From the IMG/VR virus record IMGVR_UViG_2541047893_000008: 38,116 bases of DNA; one strand, given 5' to 3'. Positions 5,117 to 14,197 of this stretch are shown one piece after another (the stretch's first letter is position 1; each line of letters opens with the position of its first letter). Origin of the DNA: a virus. Its lineage: Duplodnaviria; Heunggongvirae; Uroviricota; Caudoviricetes. Made by a program: the position numbers and the translations under genes. The notes beneath the pieces are model-generated. The model was not told where the DNA came from, searched no databases, and was given only the letters and a program-made list of their open reading frames with translations.

Positions 5117-7939
5117 ATGACGGCAGAGTACATCAGGGACTGGCAACAACCGCGCCACGCAGTGGGGCGTGAAGGAACGGGGATCCCCGCTCCTGAATCC
5201 GCGCTTTCCTCCTGGCTGGATGCCTACCGGGTAGAGAACGAGCACCGCCAGGAAATGGCTGATGCGGCGTTCTCCGCAACGCCGCTGGGCAACCTGATTA
5301 ATAAAAGCCTGAACGCACAGGAAAAACAGGACAAAACCATCACACTGGCAGGAGATGCCAGAAAACAGGCACGCGGCGCGGTGGATGAAGCCATGGCCTC
5401 GCTGCGCCTGCTGCCGTCCTATCTGCGCGATCCGCTTATTCGCCACCTCTCCTTCCTGCGCAAAAAACAGGAAGCCGATCGTCAGAAAGGCAAAAAGAGC
5501 TGGCAGGCTGAACGCTACGCGCGCGGAAACCTGCGCAAAATATTCGAACGTCTGGATCGCACCGATCACCGCTGGCTGACACAGGGTTATCGCTCCCTTG
5601 CCGGACGCGAACGCCTGGACGATTTGCTTTACCTGCCGCAGCTCAACAAACACCAGATACAGACACTGGCCACCATGACGGCGGCGATGTTCAGCAGCAC
5701 CTTCGAAAAACTCTGCGATGGCTTTGGCGCGACCGATGGCGAACTGACCATGGATGTAACGCTGAAGGCGTATCAGATGCTGGCCCGCATGGCGTTACAC
5801 CTGCACGCCATGCCTCCACATTATGACGCACTGACAACAGACAAAGACCGGAGGAACGAACCGGACACGGAGCTGCTGCCGGGCGCAATCCTTCGCCTGA
5901 CCTGTGCAGAATGGTGGAAACGCAAACTGTGGCTGTTACGTTGCGAGTGGAGAGAAGAACAACTCCGCGCCGCCTGTCTGGTTTCCAGAAAAACATCGCC
6001 CTATCTGAGCCAGGACGCGTTAAGCGAGTTTCGCGCACAGCGCGAGAAAACACGCGATTTCCTGAAAAGTTTCATGCTGGAAAATGAAGACGGGTTCACG
6101 ATTGATCTCGAGACGGTGTATTACGCGGGAGTAAGTAACCCGGTTCACCGTAAGGCAGAAATGATGGCCACCATGAAGGGGCTGGAACTTCTGGCCGAAG
6201 CCCGTGGCGACAAAGCGGTGTTTCTGACTGTCACCTGCCCGTCAAAATACCACGCCACAACAGAGAACGGTCATCCGAATCCCAAATGGAACGGGGCCAC
6301 CATGCGCGACTCCAGCGATTACCTGGTTAACACGTTTTTTGCGGCGGTCCGCAAAAAACTGAACCGCGACGGTCTTCGCTGGTATGGCATCCGCACGGTG
6401 GAGCCTCACCATGACGGCACCGTGCACTGGCATATGATGGTCTTTGCGCATCCGGAAGAAATCGACAGCATCGTGGCCATCACCCGCGATATTGCCATTC
6501 AGGAAGACCGCCACGAGCTGGGCAATGATATTACTCCGCGCTTTAAGGCGGAGTATGTCGACGGCTCAAAAGGCACACCAACCAGCTATATCGCGACCTA
6601 CATCGGAAAGAACCTGGACAGCCGCGCCGTGGATGGCATCGACCCGAAAACGGGCAAGCCACGCGTTGACCACGAAACCGGAAAATCAATGGCCGAGAGT
6701 GTGGAGCGCGCCATCGGCTGGGCGCGCCTTCATCGGGTCCGCCAGTTCCAGTTCTTTGGCATCCCCTCCCGTCAGGTGTGGCGTGAACTGCGCCGCCTTG
6801 CCAGCCAGATGGCACGCAACCCGGAAGGCCCGCAACGACTGAAAGATGACGCAATGGATGCGGTACTCGCTGCCGCCGATGCCGGGTGTTTTGCCACCTA
6901 CATTGAAAAACAGGGCGGCGTACTTGTTCCACGCAAAGACTACCTGATTCGCACCGCCTACGACCTCGCAGATGAGCTGAATGATTACGGCGAACAGAGC
7001 GTACAGATTTACGGGATCTGGTCACCACTCATCGGGGAATCCTCCCGTGTGTGCACGCATCCGGATAACTGGAAACTGGTAAGACGTAAACCGGAAACGG
7101 AAGACAGCGCCCGCGAAAATGGTTTTGACCTTCAGGGCGGCCCTGCCGCCCCTTGGACTCGTGGCAATAACTGTCCCCGTGTACAGGAAACGGACAACAA
7201 CGGGACAGAACAGCCGGAAGAACGGCCAGCACCGTGGCCGCAGCTCCCTGACGGCGTTGAAGTGAACGAATGGATGCGCTCACTGAAACGACACGAACGC
7301 CGGGCGCTGATGCGTTCGCTTCGTGACAAACAGGCAAAAAACAGCAGCGATGAAATGCAGAGCTGGACACAGAGCCGCAAACAGCAGCGGCCTTTGCCTG
7401 ATAACCACGAATTACTCGCTAAAGAATGGCGGGAGTCTGCTGAATCTCTCGGCCTGCATATCGGTGAACAACAGATGCAGCACCTGTTACGGGGCGGCAG
7501 TCTGTACGTTGACGGCAGCATCATTGCACCGCAGGGATTTGAAATTGTACGCAAACCGGATACCCGCCCGGACAGCCGAATCACGCAGCTCTGGCAGCGC
7601 CTGAGCCGTAATCACGGCGTAAGCAGCACGGAGATCCGCCATAACCCGGTCTCCAGCTATCTGGCACAGCTCGGGGCATCAGACCCCGAAGCCGCCGCAC
7701 GCCTGGCATCCACACTTCAGCAGGTCCAGAACACCATGAAAACACCCGTTACCGTGCTTTCTGACATGCTGCGCGCCATTCGTGACGCAGAGCACGCACA
7801 GAGAATCAGAGAAACCACTGAACGCGCCCGCCGCAAAGCAAACCTGCTGAGGACTGGCCTGACCAGTGGAAACAAAAAACAGACAGAAACGGGATTCACA
7901 AATCCCGTAAATGAGCAAAAAACGCGCCGCGATATATGA
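5117..7939 (+). CDS. A: Rolling-circle replication initiation endonuclease (P2 gpA family)
   Basis: 940-aa ORF with HUH motif (HWHMMVF) and two-tyrosine motif (TSYIATYIGKN); conserved blocks (VFLTVTCPSKYH, GIRTVEPHHDGT) match P2 A. About 180 aa longer than P2 A at the C-terminus. Confidence 0.9.
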   Translation: MTAEYIRDWQQPRHAVGREGTGIPAPESALSSWLDAYRVENEHRQEMADAAFSATPLGNLINKSLNAQEKQDKTITLAGDARKQARGAVDEAMASLRLLPSYLRDPLIRHLSFLRKKQEADRQKGKKSWQAERYARGNLRKIFERLDRTDHRWLTQGYRSLAGRERLDDLLYLPQLNKHQIQTLATMTAAMFSSTFEKLCDGFGATDGELTMDVTLKAYQMLARMALHLHAMPPHYDALTTDKDRRNEPDTELLPGAILRLTCAEWWKRKLWLLRCEWREEQLRAACLVSRKTSPYLSQDALSEFRAQREKTRDFLKSFMLENEDGFTIDLETVYYAGVSNPVHRKAEMMATMKGLELLAEARGDKAVFLTVTCPSKYHATTENGHPNPKWNGATMRDSSDYLVNTFFAAVRKKLNRDGLRWYGIRTVEPHHDGTVHWHMMVFAHPEEIDSIVAITRDIAIQEDRHELGNDITPRFKAEYVDGSKGTPTSYIATYIGKNLDSRAVDGIDPKTGKPRVDHETGKSMAESVERAIGWARLHRVRQFQFFGIPSRQVWRELRRLASQMARNPEGPQRLKDDAMDAVLAAADAGCFATYIEKQGGVLVPRKDYLIRTAYDLADELNDYGEQSVQIYGIWSPLIGESSRVCTHPDNWKLVRRKPETEDSARENGFDLQGGPAAPWTRGNNCPRVQETDNNGTEQPEERPAPWPQLPDGVEVNEWMRSLKRHERRALMRSLRDKQAKNSSDEMQSWTQSRKQQRPLPDNHELLAKEWRESAESLGLHIGEQQMQHLLRGGSLYVDGSIIAPQGFEIVRKPDTRPDSRITQLWQRLSRNHGVSSTEIRHNPVSSYLAQLGASDPEAAARLASTLQQVQNTMKTPVTVLSDMLRAIRDAEHAQRIRETTERARRKANLLRTGLTSGNKKQTETGFTNPVNEQKTRRDI

Positions 7940-8015: not shown

Positions 8016-8975
8016 ATGAAAATTTGTATCGACGACGGCTCCACCAACATCAAGCTGGCATGGACTGAGAATGGCGAACGCCGCAACGCCATCAGCCCGA
8101 ACAGCTTCAAGTCGGAATGGTCTGCGCCGTTCGGTGGCATGCAGCCCGCGAACTACATGCTTGATGGCGTGCGCTATGGTTTTGATCCGGTCAGCGATCG
8201 CTTTGTCCAGACGACCGACACGCAATACCAGTACAGCGATGTGAATGTAATCGCCATTCATCACGCGCTGGTCAAATCAGGCATCACGCCACAAGAGGTG
8301 GATGTGGTTGTCACCCTGCCACTGAGCGAGTATTTCGAGACAAACGCACAGCCGGACATGGCCAACATCAACCGCAAAAAAGCGAACGTTATGCGCTCGG
8401 TGGAGTACCAGAACGGCGAAGCATTCACTATCCGTAACGTGCGGGTTATGCCTGAATCCATTCCGGCTGGCTTTAAAGCACTGGCTGACATGAGTCCGTT
8501 TGAATCCCTGCTGATTGTGGATTTAGGCGGAACCACGCTGGATGTGGCAAAGGTTCAAGGGCAACTGGCAGGTATCAGCCAGGTGTTTTGCGATCCACAC
8601 GTAGGCGTTTCCCTGATGGCCGATGCCGTACTGTCGGTGATGGCCACTAACGGTATGCGCACCAGTCACCACATCGCCAATACCATTATCGAACATCGCC
8701 ATGATGAAGCCTGGCTGCGCCAGCACATCCACAATGACGCGCATTACGCCAGCCTGATGGCGGTTATTCGTGAAAAGGAAGAAACACTGAAACAACGCGT
8801 GATCCGCGCGCTGGCGGTTTTTTCGGGTTACGGGCGGGTGATGGTTGTCGGTGGAGGGGCGGAGATTGTGGCACCCGCTATCCGCGAAGTCTGCGGAGTT
8901 AATGCGACTTTCATCGCGGACGGGGTGCCACAGTTTGCTCTGGTTAATGGGCTGTACGCAATGGACAAGGAGTAA
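8016..8975 (+). CDS. parM: ParM/StbA-like actin-fold partition ATPase
   Basis: 319-aa ORF with actin-fold signatures: phosphate-1 (IDDGSTNIKL), phosphate-2 (IVDLGGTTLDV), adenosine motif (VVGGGAEIV). N-terminus resembles plasmid R1 ParM from memory (MLVFIDDGSTNIKLQW...). RBS AAGGA. Confidence 0.88.
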   Translation: MKICIDDGSTNIKLAWTENGERRNAISPNSFKSEWSAPFGGMQPANYMLDGVRYGFDPVSDRFVQTTDTQYQYSDVNVIAIHHALVKSGITPQEVDVVVTLPLSEYFETNAQPDMANINRKKANVMRSVEYQNGEAFTIRNVRVMPESIPAGFKALADMSPFESLLIVDLGGTTLDVAKVQGQLAGISQVFCDPHVGVSLMADAVLSVMATNGMRTSHHIANTIIEHRHDEAWLRQHIHNDAHYASLMAVIREKEETLKQRVIRALAVFSGYGRVMVVGGGAEIVAPAIREVCGVNATFIADGVPQFALVNGLYAMDKE

Positions 8976-8979
8976 ACCA

Positions 8980-9294
8980 ATGACGACACCAACCAGACGG
9001 ATAAGTTTCTATCTGAAGCCCGCCGCCGTCAAGAGTGAACAGGAGGCGTGCAATTACCTCGATAGCCTGCCAGCCTCCGAACGCAGCCGCGCGCAACGCG
9101 CGGCCTTTCTGGCTGGGCTAGCGCTCATAAAGCGCAACCCAGCATTTGCCTACTGGATGGCCGAATGGCCAGAGGACAACCTCCCCTTCAATACCGTTAG
9201 CATCAAGGAAACATACCAGGATAATCAGCCTAGCGGAGTTGAATGCAATTTTTATAAAATTGCAAAGAATATTCAGACCTTATTCCCAGAATAA
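8980..9294 (+). CDS. parR: ParR/StbB-like small DNA-binding partner (putative ribbon-helix-helix)
   Basis: Small ORF immediately downstream of parM (start 5 nt after the parM stop, RBS AAGGAG). N-terminus RRISFYLKP followed by two helices (EQEACNYLDSL; SERSRAQRAAFLAGLAL) fits the RHH pattern of type II partition adaptors. Assignment is inference from context and pattern. Confidence 0.65.
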   Translation: MTTPTRRISFYLKPAAVKSEQEACNYLDSLPASERSRAQRAAFLAGLALIKRNPAFAYWMAEWPEDNLPFNTVSIKETYQDNQPSGVECNFYKIAKNIQTLFPE

Positions 9295-9343
9295 TCTGAT
9301 AATTGTATGTGAACTAATAAAATACAGACCAACACATCATTCT

Positions 9344-9366
9344 GGCACCCTTGCTAACAGGGTGCC
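9344..9366. terminator. Hairpin between convergent parR and the AT-rich membrane module
   Basis: ggcaccc-ttgctaac-agggtgcc: 8-bp stem, 7-nt loop in the 83-bp convergent intergenic gap. Confidence 0.4.
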
Positions 9367-9377
9367 AATGTTTCAAA

Positions 9378-10214
9378 TCATGATGAAATTGCCGAAGTTT
9401 TTTTATCGTGCTGAAGTACCGCAAATGCCATTAAAACCTCAAGAGAATAGCGGCGATAATACTTAACAAAACCATAATAAAATACTCGGGATGCAGCAAT
9501 ACAAAACAAGAGAAGAAAACAAAAAGGTAACAGTCTGATATTTATATCTATTAAAAAGGATAGAAGGAGCAGGAACATAAGCAACCAGACTGAAGCGAGA
9601 AAAACAAATGTAATGTTTCTACAAAAACCATACAAAGCAACATAGTTTTGCATTTTCACCTGATGATTTTTAGAATGTTCATACACATAATGATAAGCAA
9701 GGCGAAAAAGATCGCCCCTCAAGCCCTTACGTCGATATAGCGTAGATAAAACATTTATATAACCATCTCGTATTTGCGGCCAAAAGACTTTAATAAGTAT
9801 AGAATGCAGTGTGGTTTTATGATGTTCTGCTTTATCAAAAGCTGATACAGGAAATAAAAAAACTCCACGAATAAAATTAACTATACTGAACTTAGTATTA
9901 TGTCGTTTTATTTTCAGGGAGCTTCTTTTAGAAAACAGATAAATTGAAGGATACCCAAGTTTACTGTTCATGTATTTTTCAATTAAACAGGATGATAGAA
10001 TAGATATGAAGTGACCTGAAATATATGATAGAACGATTAATACCACATATATAAATACACTTATTATTTCTTTATATTTCAGGATATGGTTAAGAATACC
10101 TTCTATATAAACAGGGTTAATTTCAATAGAAAACAAAAAAAGGATAAACAGGAATAACCCACCTGGAATTAGATAGCCCAAAAAGTCATAAAATGAAAAC
10201 GGATTCTGTGTCAC
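9378..10214 (-). CDS. Polytopic membrane protein of unknown function (278 aa), AT-rich cargo gene
   Basis: Several long hydrophobic segments; codon composition much more AT-rich than the phage backbone; second gene of a two-gene leftward operon; RBS GGGGGAAG. Confidence 0.7.
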   Translation of the reverse strand: MTQNPFSFYDFLGYLIPGGLFLFILFLFSIEINPVYIEGILNHILKYKEIISVFIYVVLIVLSYISGHFISILSSCLIEKYMNSKLGYPSIYLFSKRSSLKIKRHNTKFSIVNFIRGVFLFPVSAFDKAEHHKTTLHSILIKVFWPQIRDGYINVLSTLYRRKGLRGDLFRLAYHYVYEHSKNHQVKMQNYVALYGFCRNITFVFLASVWLLMFLLLLSFLIDINIRLLPFCFLLLFCIAASRVFYYGFVKYYRRYSLEVLMAFAVLQHDKKTSAISS

Positions 10215-10253
10215 ACTTCCCCCTGTGTTACTTGTAAATTAAAGGGTAAAACA

Positions 10254-10751
10254 TTATTTGTTTTTCCGTAAAGGATTAGCTTTCCATCTTCTTACTAACC
10301 ATTCGAATTCTTGATATGTAGTATCCGAATTAATGCTTTCTCTGATTGCTTTAATTAATGGCTCGGCAATATCATATGTCTCTACAACTGTTGTGTAAGA
10401 TGTTCTTTTTATCATTTTTTCATCATAAATACCTTCACGAATACTTACAGCAACTCGCTCGTAAAAATTTAAAATATATTGAAATTTTCGGCGCTCGGCC
10501 ATTTCTTCATCTGTTATTATGCAACCATCACAAGGAAAAACATAAGAACGAAATGATTTGCCTGAACGATGCACTTGTTTCAGGGTATGCAATGACTCTA
10601 TATATTGCATATCTTGCCGACTCTCAAAAAGAAAGTTGGCCGTTTGAGTTTTTTTTGCGGTACGCACATTGTAGATAATGGTTCCAATGGCAACCAAAAC
10701 GCCAAGCAGAACAATAGTATTGCTGATGATTTGTAGTGTTATTGGGTTCAT
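10254..10751 (-). CDS. N-terminally membrane-anchored protein of unknown function (165 aa), AT-rich cargo gene
   Basis: Single N-terminal TM helix (ITLQIISNTIVLLGVLVAIGTIIY) followed by a charged soluble domain; first gene of the two-gene module; no family recognised. Confidence 0.7.
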   Translation of the reverse strand: MNPITLQIISNTIVLLGVLVAIGTIIYNVRTAKKTQTANFLFESRQDMQYIESLHTLKQVHRSGKSFRSYVFPCDGCIITDEEMAERRKFQYILNFYERVAVSIREGIYDEKMIKRTSYTTVVETYDIAEPLIKAIRESINSDTTYQEFEWLVRRWKANPLRKNK

Positions 10752-10771
10752 CCTATTTCATCCATAAAAAA

Positions 10772-10792
10772 GGCGGGGAGCAAATCCCCGCC
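10772..10792 (-). terminator. Rho-independent terminator-like hairpin (ggcgggga-gcaaa-tccccgcc) with a U-run on the minus strand, 14 nt upstream of the cargo-module start codon
   Basis: GC-rich 8-bp stem, 5-nt loop, followed on the minus strand by a T7 run. Oriented to stop leftward transcription coming from the Q-P operon. Confidence 0.6.
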
Positions 10793-10948
10793 TCATTAGA
10801 GGTCAACGTAGCTTAGAAACCATCAAATTCATCATACATTTTATTCATATCAACCCCCTCATAGAAATCATAACCACGTTTTGTGGTTTTTGTGACGTAT
10901 AAACTACATCAAAGGCAAGCCACGGTCAAATATATAGGCATGCTTACC

Positions 10949-10975
10949 TGCACAAAAGTGCACAAATTTGCACAA
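10949..10975. repeat. Three helically phased direct repeats (TGCACAA every 10 bp) in the cos region
   Basis: TGCACAAAAG TGCACAAATT TGCACAATTT seen directly; resembles a phased protein-binding array (terminase or host-factor site). Confidence 0.4.
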
Positions 10976-11071
10976 TTTTTTTGAACGACTTTTTACCCTT
11001 CCGGCCCGCATGGCGGCTGGATCCGTCAAGGATCCGTGCGTGCACAAAAAAACGCGCTTTTTCTGCGCGCA

Positions 11072-11090
11072 GGTGACGGGGGAACAGCCC
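11072..11090. other. Candidate cos (cohesive-end) site
   Basis: GC-rich 19-mer ggtgacgggggaacagccc in the ORF-free gap between hotspot and portal gene, where P2 cos lies. About 13/19 match to my recollection of the P2 cos sequence. Tentative. Confidence 0.3.
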
Positions 11091-11399
11091 GCGTTTCAGG
11101 GGGTAAATAGTATTCCCTGAGCGATGTCGCAGCGACATAACAGAATGGCCATATTTCTCACGCTGAGCGTGAAAAAGATGTGAGGGCTTTTGATTTGATG
11201 GGGTGAAAGGTAAGGCCGTCAAAATCGCACTGAGGCGGTGAGAACATGCAGTCAGCGCGGTGGGATTGCGTAAGAGTCTGACCGTCGATGATGGTAATAA
11301 ACAGGAAAGCGTCGTGAAATTATCTGATTGATACAGGAGCTGGAGAGTCGGGGCATAAATTTTTTATGCCCCGCCGAAGCAGCAGACAAGCGAAGCGCG

Positions 11400-12446
11400 T
11401 CAGGATGTGGGCTGGGTGTCTAACAGTGCGTAAGGGTTAAAGCGAATCACCTCTTCGCCAAGCCAGTCATTGATGTGCTTCATGGCCTCCATGACGGGCA
11501 TCAGCTCGTTAATTGCGTAAACCCGCGCGGCCTTCTCCACATCACCAAACGCACTTTTTTCGCCTGGCATCGCCCCCATCAGTTGCGGCGGAACGCGGTG
11601 CGCAGCCAGCACATCATCACGGGATGCCACCTTAACATTCATGAACTCATCCTTTGCGGTGATCTGCTGGAACGGCAAAATTTGCACCCCCTCTTTGCCA
11701 CCGTTGGGCGCATGAATGAGCACGTTTTTAAACGCACCACCACCACGCGCACCCTGTAGCGTTTCTTTCAGGGAGTCCATGCTTTCGCGGTTTACCTGCG
11801 CTGCACCGATGTAGATGATGCACCCGGCGTGGGATCCGTTGTCGTAATACAGTTTTCTGAACATGTCCGCCGAATGAGACAGGCTGGCCGAGAGTAATGC
11901 GCCGAGATATTCCGGCATGCCGTAGATTTCCTGGTTAATGTCAGGATTCATCAGGTGGCACACTTTGCCAGGGCGAAACTGAAACGCGTCCTTGCCATCC
12001 TGCACATACCACCATGATTCAAGATCGCTTCCGCGTCGCATGTATTTCGCCAGGGCGTGCCGTAATTTAAGCGGTTCGCCGAGCATATTGCTTCGAAGCT
12101 CAAGGAATGCGTTACCGAACACAAACCAGTCCAGCGCCAGCGCCGAGAAATCCTGCCGGGAAAGCAACGGGTGCGGGATGTAGCAACCGAGTAATACATT
12201 GCGCTTAAAGTAAAGCGCAGACTGATGCCAGGACGTTTGCCGGGCAGCTCTTGCCAGACCGTACCAGTCCACCGGGGTTTCATACCACCGCCCGTTATCA
12301 GCACAGTACATATTGTCCAGCAGGTCATGCCCGGTCAGGCGATAAGGACCATCAAATGTGAATGCACTGAGCGATGATTCTTTCCTGAGCGCATCAGCGA
12401 GATCAATGCGTGAACTCATGCGCACTTTTTTATTTTTTCTGCTCAT
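11400..12446 (-). CDS. Q: Portal protein (P2 gpQ family)
   Basis: 348-aa leftward ORF immediately downstream of the large terminase gene (ATGA overlap); size and position match P2 Q. Confidence 0.88.
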   Translation of the reverse strand: MSRKNKKVRMSSRIDLADALRKESSLSAFTFDGPYRLTGHDLLDNMYCADNGRWYETPVDWYGLARAARQTSWHQSALYFKRNVLLGCYIPHPLLSRQDFSALALDWFVFGNAFLELRSNMLGEPLKLRHALAKYMRRGSDLESWWYVQDGKDAFQFRPGKVCHLMNPDINQEIYGMPEYLGALLSASLSHSADMFRKLYYDNGSHAGCIIYIGAAQVNRESMDSLKETLQGARGGGAFKNVLIHAPNGGKEGVQILPFQQITAKDEFMNVKVASRDDVLAAHRVPPQLMGAMPGEKSAFGDVEKAARVYAINELMPVMEAMKHINDWLGEEVIRFNPYALLDTQPTS

Positions 12447-14197
12447 CAGAACTCCATAACCGTGAAACGCTCGTTTTCTCCTTCGCCGCCAATTGGTTCG
12501 TTAATGACAGCAAGCATGGTTGCCCACGCAAGGTCGCCGTGGCTGATCCCCCTCGCGCGGTCCGTTTCGTAAGTGATAAAGCCGCCCGGTGTTTTCACCT
12601 TACGCACGGCGTTAAAGGCCGCGACCAGCTCGCGTTCGGCGCGATCGTATTCCCACCGCCCGGCACGCATTATTTGCAGCATTTTCAGTACCAGCGACCG
12701 TTTTGATGACAGCGTGAAGGTGTACGGAATAGCGGCAGGGAAAAACCGTTTCACTATCTGATAAACAGCCTCCCCGTTCCCGCCCGTCACATCAATGCCG
12801 ATGTGTTCCACGTTGTAGCGACACGTGAACTCTTCAATGACTCTGGCCTGTTCTTCAAACTCCAGCCCCTGAACGCGTCGCGTCTCTACCGTTCGAAAAC
12901 GGCCACCAGGAACAGACGGAGGAACCACCACGGACACAGCGCCGCTGTCGCCGTTGCCACTGCTGCCGTTTGCGTCATACCCAATCCATACCGGACGATT
13001 CCCCATCGGGCGGGGAGCAAAAGGTTTCCAGTCTTTCCAGTCGTCGTATCCGTCAACACCGCAGCCAATCAGGATATTCAGGTTAAATGCCGATTCCCCT
13101 TCGCGGACAAACTCACACATATAGAGATTGAGGAACTCGTCTTCGGTGTTTTCATCACGAATTTCGTCGATATCGGTGTGTTCCCAGCCGTGATTAACCA
13201 CATCTTCCAGCGTGACAATTTGCCGCCACGTCCGGTCAGGGCAGATAAGCCCGTTATGCAGCGCTTTCCAGTCCACAGAAAAACGCTGGCGTTTATGCGT
13301 GGCCTTTTTCTCGTTCCAGCGGTCGCCGTTCCAGTAGGCGTATGCCTCGTGCATTTCGGTGGATGGCGTGGAGAAGTAGGTGCGCCGCAGTCCGCTGAGG
13401 GTTGCCATAGCGCCAGCCACCTTGCGCAGTTCAGCAAAGCGACTGACCCAGAAAAATTCATCAAAATAAAAATTGCCCGTATAGGACTGTGCCGACGCAG
13501 CAGAAGTGCCGAGAAAATGCAGCTCTGCGCCGTTGGAGAGGATGATTTTATCGCCCCCTTTCAGCTCCACATCAACTTCAGCCGCGGCCTTCTGAATAAT
13601 GCTTTTAAACTGGAACGCCTGACGACGCGACGCAGACAAAAAAATCTGGTTACGCTGGTAAGGTTGCGCCACATCGTCACGCAGCGCCATCAGCAGCGCT
13701 TCCTGTGCAAAATACCAGGTCGCCCCAATCTGTCGGGATTTCAGGATCATCCTGTTACGTATCCCTGCTTCCCTGCAAAGGGTCAGGGAGTCAAACCAGC
13801 CCCGCTGATGCCACTCCAGCCTGCTGATGATTTTTTCCCGCAGTGCGGCAATCTGTTCCGGCGTGAAATGATTTTTAAGCTTTTTCGCCCGGCCTTTCTT
13901 TCCTGTGGCCGTCGCATCCGGCTGGCCATCATGCAGTTTTTTAAGCTGCCGGGTCAGCAGGTCTATTTCCTTGAAGTCACCACCTGTTTTATTCTGTTTT
14001 TCAGTGAGCTGGATGAGGCGCGCATCGATGGACTGCGTGACACGCTGCACGGGTGGCGTTTCATCCCACTGGTCGCGTTTTTTCCACGCATAAATCGTGT
14101 TCGGGTTTATTCCCATCAGACGTGATATTTCTGCGGGCGGATAACCCTGCCAGTAAAGTTGCCGCGCACGCTGGCGCACAAAAGCGTCCTGAATCAT
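12446..14197 (-). CDS. P: Terminase large (ATPase) subunit (P2 gpP family)
   Basis: 583-aa leftward ORF, divergent from scaffold O, with a terminase ATPase-like segment (KSRQIGATWYF); P2 P-Q arrangement. Confidence 0.9.
   Translation of the reverse strand: MIQDAFVRQRARQLYWQGYPPAEISRLMGINPNTIYAWKKRDQWDETPPVQRVTQSIDARLIQLTEKQNKTGGDFKEIDLLTRQLKKLHDGQPDATATGKKGRAKKLKNHFTPEQIAALREKIISRLEWHQRGWFDSLTLCREAGIRNRMILKSRQIGATWYFAQEALLMALRDDVAQPYQRNQIFLSASRRQAFQFKSIIQKAAAEVDVELKGGDKIILSNGAELHFLGTSAASAQSYTGNFYFDEFFWVSRFAELRKVAGAMATLSGLRRTYFSTPSTEMHEAYAYWNGDRWNEKKATHKRQRFSVDWKALHNGLICPDRTWRQIVTLEDVVNHGWEHTDIDEIRDENTEDEFLNLYMCEFVREGESAFNLNILIGCGVDGYDDWKDWKPFAPRPMGNRPVWIGYDANGSSGNGDSGAVSVVVPPSVPGGRFRTVETRRVQGLEFEEQARVIEEFTCRYNVEHIGIDVTGGNGEAVYQIVKRFFPAAIPYTFTLSSKRSLVLKMLQIMRAGRWEYDRAERELVAAFNAVRKVKTPGGFITYETDRARGISHGDLAWATMLAVINEPIGGEGENERFTVMEF

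Follow-up and report, generated by a model that had tools for sequence, protein, structure and literature searches.

How is a gene expressed when an intrinsic terminator stands directly before its start codon? This question is raised by a cargo gene in an Escherichia coli prophage of the P88/Xuanwuvirus group of the P2-like family (IMG/VR virus record IMGVR_UViG_2541047893_000008; all 38,116 nucleotides of it are referred to here as the window). The gene encodes a 165-residue protein of the DUF4760 family and is preceded, on the minus strand, by a hairpin with a T-run. A sequence-only reading of this DNA had pointed out the hairpin and a five-codon open reading frame (ORF) next to it, and had offered two explanations: dependence of the gene on read-through from the late Q-P operon, or control by an attenuator-like element. 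Our comparative analysis indicates that the hairpin is a terminator within a seemingly autonomous cargo operon, that it follows an unannotated 11-codon small ORF (sORF) conserved together with DUF4760, and that it probably serves as a fixed attenuator.

The hairpin, GAGGCGGGGA-TTTGC-TCCCCGCCTT, was correctly described as GC-rich: a stem of 10 pairs (7 G-C) closes a loop of 5 nt, with a folding energy of -18.9 kcal/mol. Its T-run is real, although the U7 given for it is slightly too long, six T being followed by A and T; the distance from the T-run to the DUF4760 ATG is exactly 14 nt (10765..10752), as had been stated. A generic terminator scan of positions 9000..12000 returned 7 sites versus 3.0 +/- 2.0 in shuffled sequences, a count that alone is weak evidence. 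Comparison of relatives carries more information. In 29 of 29 distinct homologous leaders, folded one by one, a hairpin of -10.8 to -18.9 kcal/mol is followed by 5-8 U, and the stems represent at least five unrelated sequences (GAGGCGGGG..., GATCGGAGG..., GCGGAGCC..., GCGGGGC..., GGTGAGTC...). RNAalifold applied to a hairpin-only alignment yielded 9 consensus pairs, 7 of which display compensatory double changes, and the stem of Citrobacter phage Shae_phiSM contains a compensatory G-C to A-U change (GGAGA/TCTCC). Per-sequence folds and the hairpin-only alignment replaced pair counting on the columns of a full-leader MAFFT alignment, which was abandoned because the Shine-Dalgarno (SD) and loop columns were misaligned. 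Given its conservation in all these leaders with compensatory changes, the hairpin is not a chance structure, and since the opposite strand has no T-run after it, it would work in one direction only. The hairpin thus appears to be a bona fide, conserved Rho-independent terminator inside an autonomous cargo operon.

Upstream of the terminator lies the sORF, which in the window encodes MNKMYDEFDGF. A GGAGG/GGGGG-type SD sequence precedes the sORF in all relatives, and its early codons are AAA-rich. The aligned counterparts are MKKVFDEFDGF in Shae_phiSM and MKKRYDEFDGF in plasmids, each followed by a hairpin. A degenerate scan of viral contigs for DEFDGF-stop identified more than 120 loci; 39 of the matches (about 20 distinct leaders) contain the sORF-hairpin cassette, and DUF4760 follows wherever the downstream sequence suffices. 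To avoid ascertainment through the motif, loci were also retrieved by the DUF4760 protein alone, and sORF and terminator were found before the gene in 22 of 22 of them, at identities down to 41%. These are 16 of 16 genome loci with 61-88% identical proteins, including those of Xenorhabdus, Kluyvera, Enterobacter, Klebsiella, Rahnella, Franconibacter and Pantoea, and 6 of 6 loci of 41-46%-identical, Providencia-/Morganella-type homologues, which reside in siphovirus-type prophages beside immunity regions and have the peptides MVNYIRDEFEGF, MKRIYRDEFEWV, MTNYIRDEFEWV and MKRFIRDEFEWV. The same pair of elements also precedes 39-40%-identical viral homologues of DUF4760.

Among relatives, the sORF is 9-12 codons long, with further peptides such as MKKAHDEFDGF, MKKICDEFDGF, MEAMFDEYDWF, MNSIQDEYDWF, MAFDEFDGF, MKKFDEYDGL and MQLDEYDGF; the N-terminal part varies and the six residues before the stop are conserved. 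Across the last six codons in 19 distinct sequences, variable sites number 2/6, 1/6 and 6/6 at codon positions 1, 2 and 3, respectively, the synonymous D and E codons are split approximately 50/50, and TAA, TAG and TGA are all used as stops. Because third positions vary while first and second positions are nearly fixed, and because three stop codons are in use, the sORF is predicted to be translated, and the ending D-E-[FY]-[DE]-[GW]-[FLV]-stop is under purifying selection. The peptide is better conserved than DUF4760 itself, and the conserved unit is sORF, terminator and DUF4760.

The DNA that carries this unit can be delimited. In an alignment with P88, P88_4B11 and 705R2, the phage backbone is retained down to position 10949, beyond which P88 diverges fully. 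Because backbone homology ends there, the ~200 nt from 10948 to the DUF4760 ATG are cargo rather than part of the phage late region. A candidate sigma-70 promoter, with a predicted transcript start near 10894, directly follows the junction, and the pattern TTGAC(T/C)-N17-TA(A/G)TTT recurs 80-102 nt upstream of the sORF ATG in most relatives; from this conservation we infer that the cassette has a promoter of its own. The 14-nt gap between the T-run and the DUF4760 ATG is too short for another promoter, so the DUF4760 mRNA must cross the hairpin. The leader also travels without the gene: window positions 10931..10762, ending just past the T-run, recur at 79% identity and with an intact sORF in ~47-kb phage-plasmids of E. 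coli, E. fergusonii and Klebsiella aerogenes, where nothing is annotated at the matching stretch (distant BLAST), and a copy of 73% identity stands before DUF4760 in Shae_phiSM. Because the leader alone recurs in phage-plasmids, the promoter-sORF-terminator unit is modular. The cargo operon as a whole appears to be autonomous from the phage backbone.

We propose that the terminator acts as a fixed attenuator of a self-contained operon, setting a high ratio of peptide to DUF4760, and consider this reading probable. The operon would be ordered as sigma-70 promoter, 5' stem-loop, strong SD, sORF, 18-nt spacer, terminator, weak ribosome-binding region, DUF4760 and, in the window, the gene for a 278-residue protein. 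Most transcripts from the cassette promoter would stop at the terminator, producing an abundant ~130-nt RNA that would be efficiently translated into the peptide. A minority would read through, and DUF4760 would be translated at a low level from its poor ribosome-binding region, so that the peptide would outnumber a membrane protein kept scarce. The initiation signals are in keeping with this scheme: the DUF4760 start has only UGGAUGA / AGGA-AUG, in contrast to the strong, 5-nt-spaced SD of the sORF, a difference that fits skewed expression. We infer both the transcript ratio and that this ratio is the selected function.

Several points weigh against this proposal. The -10 element TAGTTT is weak, matching 3/6 consensus positions, and the promoter is not listed by a generic promoter scan, although the key -10 bases T1, A2 and T6 are retained. 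Termination efficiency and read-through are predictions. The sORF peptide has no known function, its conservation right before the stop codon would also fit a nascent-chain regulator, and the same peptide motif is present in many phages without DUF4760, so a role dedicated to DUF4760 is not established.

These other occurrences are diverse. DEFDGF-stop micro-ORFs without DUF4760 are found in many unrelated phages, usually with a hairpin after them (among viral loci L010-L126; for example, L016:1473, L116:1001, L030:686(-) and L026:10722). The motif is carried by micro-ORFs of epsilon15-like, T4-like, lambdoid and other P88-like phages as well as of phage-plasmids, MLDEFDGF being one form. In other P88-like phages, ParR or ClpX-zinc-finger genes are directly followed by MNDEFDGF, then by a hairpin and a 175-aa gene; in epsilon15-like phages, MKDEFDGF has an ATGA overlap with the end of gp49_66-family genes; MYDEFDGF comes after Q antiterminator genes in Proteus and Providencia phages; and in T4-like phages of Enterobacter and Citrobacter a DEFDGF micro-ORF lies ahead of gp47. 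The motif is sometimes duplicated (DEFEGFDEFDGF, DEFEWCDEFDGF) and once forms the C-terminus of a 64-aa protein. In a P88-like subgroup (L011, L015, L019 and others), NDEFDGF is encoded at the end of the ParR gene in frame +1 relative to the ParR stop, and CTG stands at the position of the sister group's ATG, leaving no evident start codon; the copy may be decaying, the peptide may arise by a frameshift, or translation may begin at a codon other than ATG. Given all these occurrences, the sORF peptide could be a micro-protein or short binding motif of general use to phages, and its relation to DUF4760 might be that of a partner, antitoxin or regulator. Literature searches for DEFDGF and its variants returned nothing in a relevant context. 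Resemblance to the SSB C-terminal tail, a sliding-clamp-binding motif, an SspB/ClpX tag or a ParM-binding tail was considered and rejected, the match to the known consensus motifs being too poor.

The attenuator-like role suggested by the sequence-only reading is upheld insofar as a terminator does lie between promoter and gene; it had been tied to the wrong small ORF, the relevant one being the 11-codon sORF upstream. A conditional, ribosome-mediated version of such an attenuator has to be weighed, in which translation of the sORF, e.g. stalling at its stop on a signal such as phage-induced translation stress, would decide whether the terminator forms, and DUF4760 would be induced on demand. 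It would account for the position of a short translated ORF just ahead of a terminator and for a conserved hexapeptide that adjoins the stop behind a variable N-terminal part and could be an arrest motif, short arrest peptides typically being conserved next to the stop and variable at the N-terminus. In some unrelated phages, 0-7 nt separate the stop of the same motif from the hairpin, which then starts within the ribosome footprint, and in the close subfamily the spacer is able to pair with the sORF SD, forming a helix in the centroid fold with duplex energies of -10 to -12.5 kcal/mol. However, a terminating ribosome covers ~10 nt beyond the stop codon, whereas the stem begins 16-27 nt past it in DUF4760 leaders and ~50 nt past it in the Providencia group. 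The upstream RNA contains no complement to either terminator arm beyond CCUC:GAGG (4 nt), and no antiterminator that would make the terminator conditional was found in the leader folds or in relatives. Distant members lack the SD:spacer pairing, covariation was not seen, and own pairs are no better than non-own ones (-9.4 versus -9.0 kcal/mol); SD sequestration, plausible in the close subfamily, was dropped as a mechanism for lack of covariation and of generality. The use of three stop codons implies no release-factor specificity, and the tandem copies of the motif and the 64-aa protein ending in DEFDGF suggest a binding motif over a tunnel-arrest sequence. A conditional attenuator is thus rather unlikely in our judgement, and a fixed one is the simplest reading, because no antiterminator was found and the stem is beyond the reach of a stopped ribosome. 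Coupling through the five-codon mini-ORF, by initiation at AUG 10765, termination at UGA and re-initiation at the overlapping DUF4760 AUG, is more doubtful still. The overlap is genuine: ATG GAT GAA ATA GGA TGA occupies 10765..10748 and, as had been noted, its stop overlaps the ATG of the 165-aa gene (10751..10749) as ATGA; the DUF4760 start lacks a well-spaced SD, and an AUG or GUG directly follows the U-run in most members. When ~38 distinct leaders were classed by the fate of this AUG/GUG (by script with manual correction), ~9, including the window, had a 4-5-codon ORF with a stop overlapping the DUF4760 AUG (e.g. L047, L080, L089, L128, L129, L131 and L132). Against this, in ~17 leaders the AUG opens a longer out-of-frame ORF running over the DUF4760 start, in ~7 it is in frame with DUF4760 and extends its N-terminus, and in L138, L142, L143 and L147 it is absent and an ordinary SD (AAGGGG, GGGAGAG, AGGUGA) stands instead; moreover, the mini-ORF AUG itself has no SD. 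What is conserved is a string composed of the U-run and AU(G/A)G(A/G)UGAA (AUGGAUGAA), best read as a weak ribosome-binding region of DUF4760, and the mini-ORF probably just overlies its UGGAUGA.

The other proposal of the sequence-only reading, that the cargo lacks its own promoter and is reached only by transcripts running on from the late P-Q operon, so that its expression would be coupled to lytic development, is not borne out by the comparison and seems very unlikely. Q and P do lie upstream on the same strand as the cargo, as had been noted, with no opposing gene between, and the three are contiguous in prophage and circular DNA. Read-through would, however, have to pass a backbone terminator (11070..11045), GCGCGCAGAAAAAGCGCG-T7, which is invariant in the window, P88, P88_4B11 and 705R2 regardless of cargo and probably marks the end of the late P-Q transcript outside the cargo, and then the reported hairpin as a second terminator. 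In addition, a conserved promoter motif lies inside the cargo DNA, the same leader is found in non-P2 prophages and phage-plasmids without a nearby Q-P operon, and accessory genes of this hotspot have been reported to be active from native promoters (PMC9122126). We give equally little credence to an infection sensor, in which a near-complete terminator would silence DUF4760 in the lysogen until a superinfecting phage supplied a processive antiterminator or perturbed termination. A strong terminator (-18.9 kcal/mol, U6) before a weak ribosome-binding site, the location in a defence hotspot and a membrane-anchored DUF4760 (in the model) that could be toxic would suit such a device; on the other side, it is purely conjectural, no nut- or qut-like element was identified, and DUF4760 is linked to defence by location alone, with no PADLOC match. 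An unlikely but somewhat more credible elaboration of the fixed attenuator is a two-component defence module resembling toxin-antitoxin systems, in which a membrane-anchored DUF4760 effector would be restrained by an acidic-aromatic peptide of 9-12 residues (…D-E-F-D-G-F-COOH) that is labile but over-produced by virtue of the terminator; phage shut-off of host expression would deplete the peptide and free the effector, and the free-standing micro-ORFs of phages would be counter-defence decoys.

Table 1. Positions in the window of the cassette, its flanks and neighbouring genes.
Feature	Position	Strand	Basis or remark
gpA replication protein	5117..7939	+	
ParM	8016..8975	+	
ParR-like Plasmid_stab_B gene	ends near 9294	+	
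278-aa hydrophobic protein, optional second cargo gene	9378..10214	-	PHROG 12528, no assigned function
DUF4760 gene, 165 aa	10254..10751	-	Pfam PF15956, E = 1e-34
Five-codon mini-ORF	10748..10765	-	Present in window; frame, length and presence not conserved
Intrinsic terminator (stem-loop 10794..10770, T-run 10771..10766)	10766..10794	-	Folding, conservation
18-nt spacer with ACCUCU (10803..10798), complementary to sORF SD	10795..10812	-	Centroid fold
11-codon sORF, ATG AAT AAA ATG TAT GAT GAA TTT GAT GGT TTC TAA (MNKMYDEFDGF*), predicted	10813..10848	-	Conservation, codon pattern
sORF Shine-Dalgarno GAGGGGG, 5 nt before ATG	10854..10860	-	Read from sequence
5'-UTR stem-loop AACCAC-AAAAC-GTGGTT	10872..10888	-	Folding; relatives have a hairpin of different sequence in the same place (by eye)
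Candidate sigma-70 promoter: -35 TTGACC (10929..10924), 17-nt spacer, -10 TAGTTT (10906..10901)	10901..10929	-	Conservation
Backbone/cargo junction	10949/10948		End of backbone homology
Three TTGTGCA repeats, 10-nt period	10949..10975		Tandem Repeats Finder; last backbone sequence before junction
Ends of linear P88_4B11 genome record	10993..10994		Left end aligns to 10994, right end continues at 10993
Backbone intrinsic terminator downstream of Q, GCGCGCAGAAAAAGCGCG + T7	11045..11070	-	Terminator scan
Portal gene Q	11400..12446	-	Upstream of cargo
Terminase gene P	12446..14197	-	Upstream of cargo

Further observations were made on the leader and its relatives. An inverted repeat that is a possible operator, ATTACC-N5-GGTAAT, overlaps the promoter spacer and -10 element in most relatives (e.g. 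L008, L131 and L134), with covariation in variants such as TTAACC..GGTTA. In the window the equivalent region, 10920-10900, contains a degenerate version (CTTGCC...ATGTAG). In a Providencia/Morganella subgroup (L144-L149), a TTGACA-N17-TATTAT promoter and the sORF enclose a conserved leader segment of ~100 nt (AAGCTTTCGAGCAATGCAGT...GAGATGTGTTGGTG...), which lies ~230 to 130 nt ahead of the DUF4760 start and has no Rfam match. Rfam searches returned nothing significant for window positions 9000..12000 (SorX, E = 0.22; caiA, E = 0.19) and no match within the leaders themselves of five related loci. In the phage-plasmids L005 (4167-4268), L006 and L007, the ATG after the T-run opens a hydrophobic ORF of 33-36 aa (MATFKRWSALSLSILLHVPILAWLIARQINARL) rather than DUF4760, and the 49-aa gene annotated at this site is on the opposite strand. 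Elsewhere in L005 (3135-3988; plasmid p806883-9-2019b), a stand-alone sORF-terminator directly follows a ryfA RNA (Rfam RF00126, 142 bits) near C4/isrK immunity RNAs; in Klebsiella pneumoniae ATCC 13883 (L133:3124-3323), the DUF4760 gene is closely followed by isrK and C4. The terminator is also a site of insertion: in E. coli MDR_56 (NZ_CP019903.1; L151:867-2213), and likewise in L069, L100, L121 and H35, IS421 of the IS4 family is inserted inside it. The 13-bp target duplication, GGGATTTGCTCCC, covers the loop and part of both arms, and the insertion parts promoter and sORF from DUF4760 and destroys the hairpin, with the transposase gene pointing towards DUF4760.

The DUF4760 protein belongs to PHROG 2284, which has no assigned function. 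Its AF2 model (pLDDT 90.7) comprises an N-terminal transmembrane helix and a helical bundle; domain and fold searches found no recognisable enzymatic domain, and PADLOC returned no match. The best matches of the model in the PDB are the helical EP domains of plant EDS1, PAD4 and SAG101 (probability up to 0.97, TM 0.55), which at E ~0.3 are not significant. The 278-aa protein has a weak Csx27-like match in PADLOC (E = 1.4e-4). Its gene was rejected as an obligatory partner, since it is found at only 8 of 55 DUF4760 loci, and these 8 are closely related to the window.

The cassette occupies the gpA–gpQ hotspot adjoining cos. In P2-like phages this region has been described as a store of systems directed against phages (Rousset et al. 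2022, PMC9122126), and it is the subject of a further paper (PMC13586616). Window positions 9300..11450 are 98.7% identical to phage vB_EcoM-705R2 and are present at 80% coverage or more in 289 of 5426 complete E. coli genomes; this cassette copy occurs in 283-299 of them (~5%), including ST131 strain JJ1886, where it lies at 973997-974691 of NC_022648.1 with 99.6% identity. Between gpA and the hotspot (8016-9294), as in P88, lies an actin-like ParM/ParR (StbA/StbB-type) partition module, which suggests that a plasmid-like maintenance stage is possible. The ends of the linear P88_4B11 record fall between the backbone terminator and the cargo; 10994/10993 is probably the cos cleavage region, the record ends putatively being the cohesive ends. 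The notion that the hairpin GAGGCGGGGA... is itself the cos site was dropped, the likely genome end being ~200 nt upstream; a search across the window for the P2 cos 19-mer GGCGAGGCGGGGAAAGCAC with up to 3 mismatches gave no match. The TTGTGCA repeats, ~20 nt from the probable virion DNA end, are kept in P88-family backbones, and Xenorhabdus, Kluyvera and Dryocola prophages likewise have them ahead of the cassette; they may serve to bind a protein, e.g. as a terminase/cos or regulator site.

The hairpin is thus an element of an ordinary kind whose analysis reveals an unannotated micro-gene with strong coding signatures, which accompanies every DUF4760 gene examined and sits in an anti-phage hotspot. 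If the peptide and DUF4760 do cooperate, they would constitute a peptide-based regulatory or toxin-antitoxin-like module with its stoichiometry hard-wired by a terminator. Genes of 9-12 codons escape gene callers and hotspot surveys, yet can be the most conserved part of a cassette. A search of the literature for DUF4760 returned nothing relevant, its single match concerning Serratia genomic islands, and the searchable literature, exclusive of the supplementary tables of both hotspot papers, yielded no mention of the combination of micro-ORF and DUF4760. The regulatory layout is known in kind, and the micro-gene family is the part that deserves follow-up.

We compared the cassette with systems of similar layout. 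It shares with the gpA-gpQ cassettes of P2 (PMC9122126) the locus, the swapping of cargo between conserved backbone flanks and, as predicted here, native-promoter expression, and differs in that its micro-ORF and DUF4760 cargo matches no PADLOC model. Leader-peptide attenuators (trpL, pheL and hisL; ermCL- and msrDL-type) likewise consist of a short translated leader ORF, a Rho-independent terminator and a structural gene; in contrast to them, the cassette has no alternative antiterminator hairpin in the path of the ribosome, and its terminator lies too far downstream for a ribosome positioned on the stop codon to reach it. Type III toxin-antitoxin systems (ToxIN, CptIN and TenpIN) resemble it in the succession of a promoter, a small first product and a short palindromic terminator directly before the second gene (14 nt here), as well as in their anti-phage or mobile-element context, and in ToxIN the proportion of the two products is regulated by the palindromic terminator that separates toxI from toxN (Blower et al. 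2012, PMC3401426). However, their first product is a tandem-repeat RNA and that of the cassette is, by prediction, a translated peptide, while ToxN is an endoribonuclease and DUF4760 a membrane-anchored helical protein in the model. Tandem Repeats Finder detected no tandem repeats in the stretch from promoter to terminator, so the locus does not belong to type III. The mccA-terminator-mccB arrangement also combines a tiny ORF with a strong SD (7 codons there, 9-12 here), an intergenic intrinsic terminator and downstream genes on the same transcript, and in the mcc operon a ~20:1 excess of the short over the long transcript sets the peptide-to-enzyme ratio (Zukher et al. 2014, PMC4231749). The mcc terminator is weakened by upstream RNA and restored by the mccA-bound ribosome, an interference not identified here; MccA is the substrate of MccB, whereas the cassette has no downstream enzyme; and the peptides are unrelated. 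The mcc operon thus offers a precedent for a terminator that fixes the proportion of a peptide to the product of the gene behind it, which in the DUF4760 cassette is the predicted outcome.

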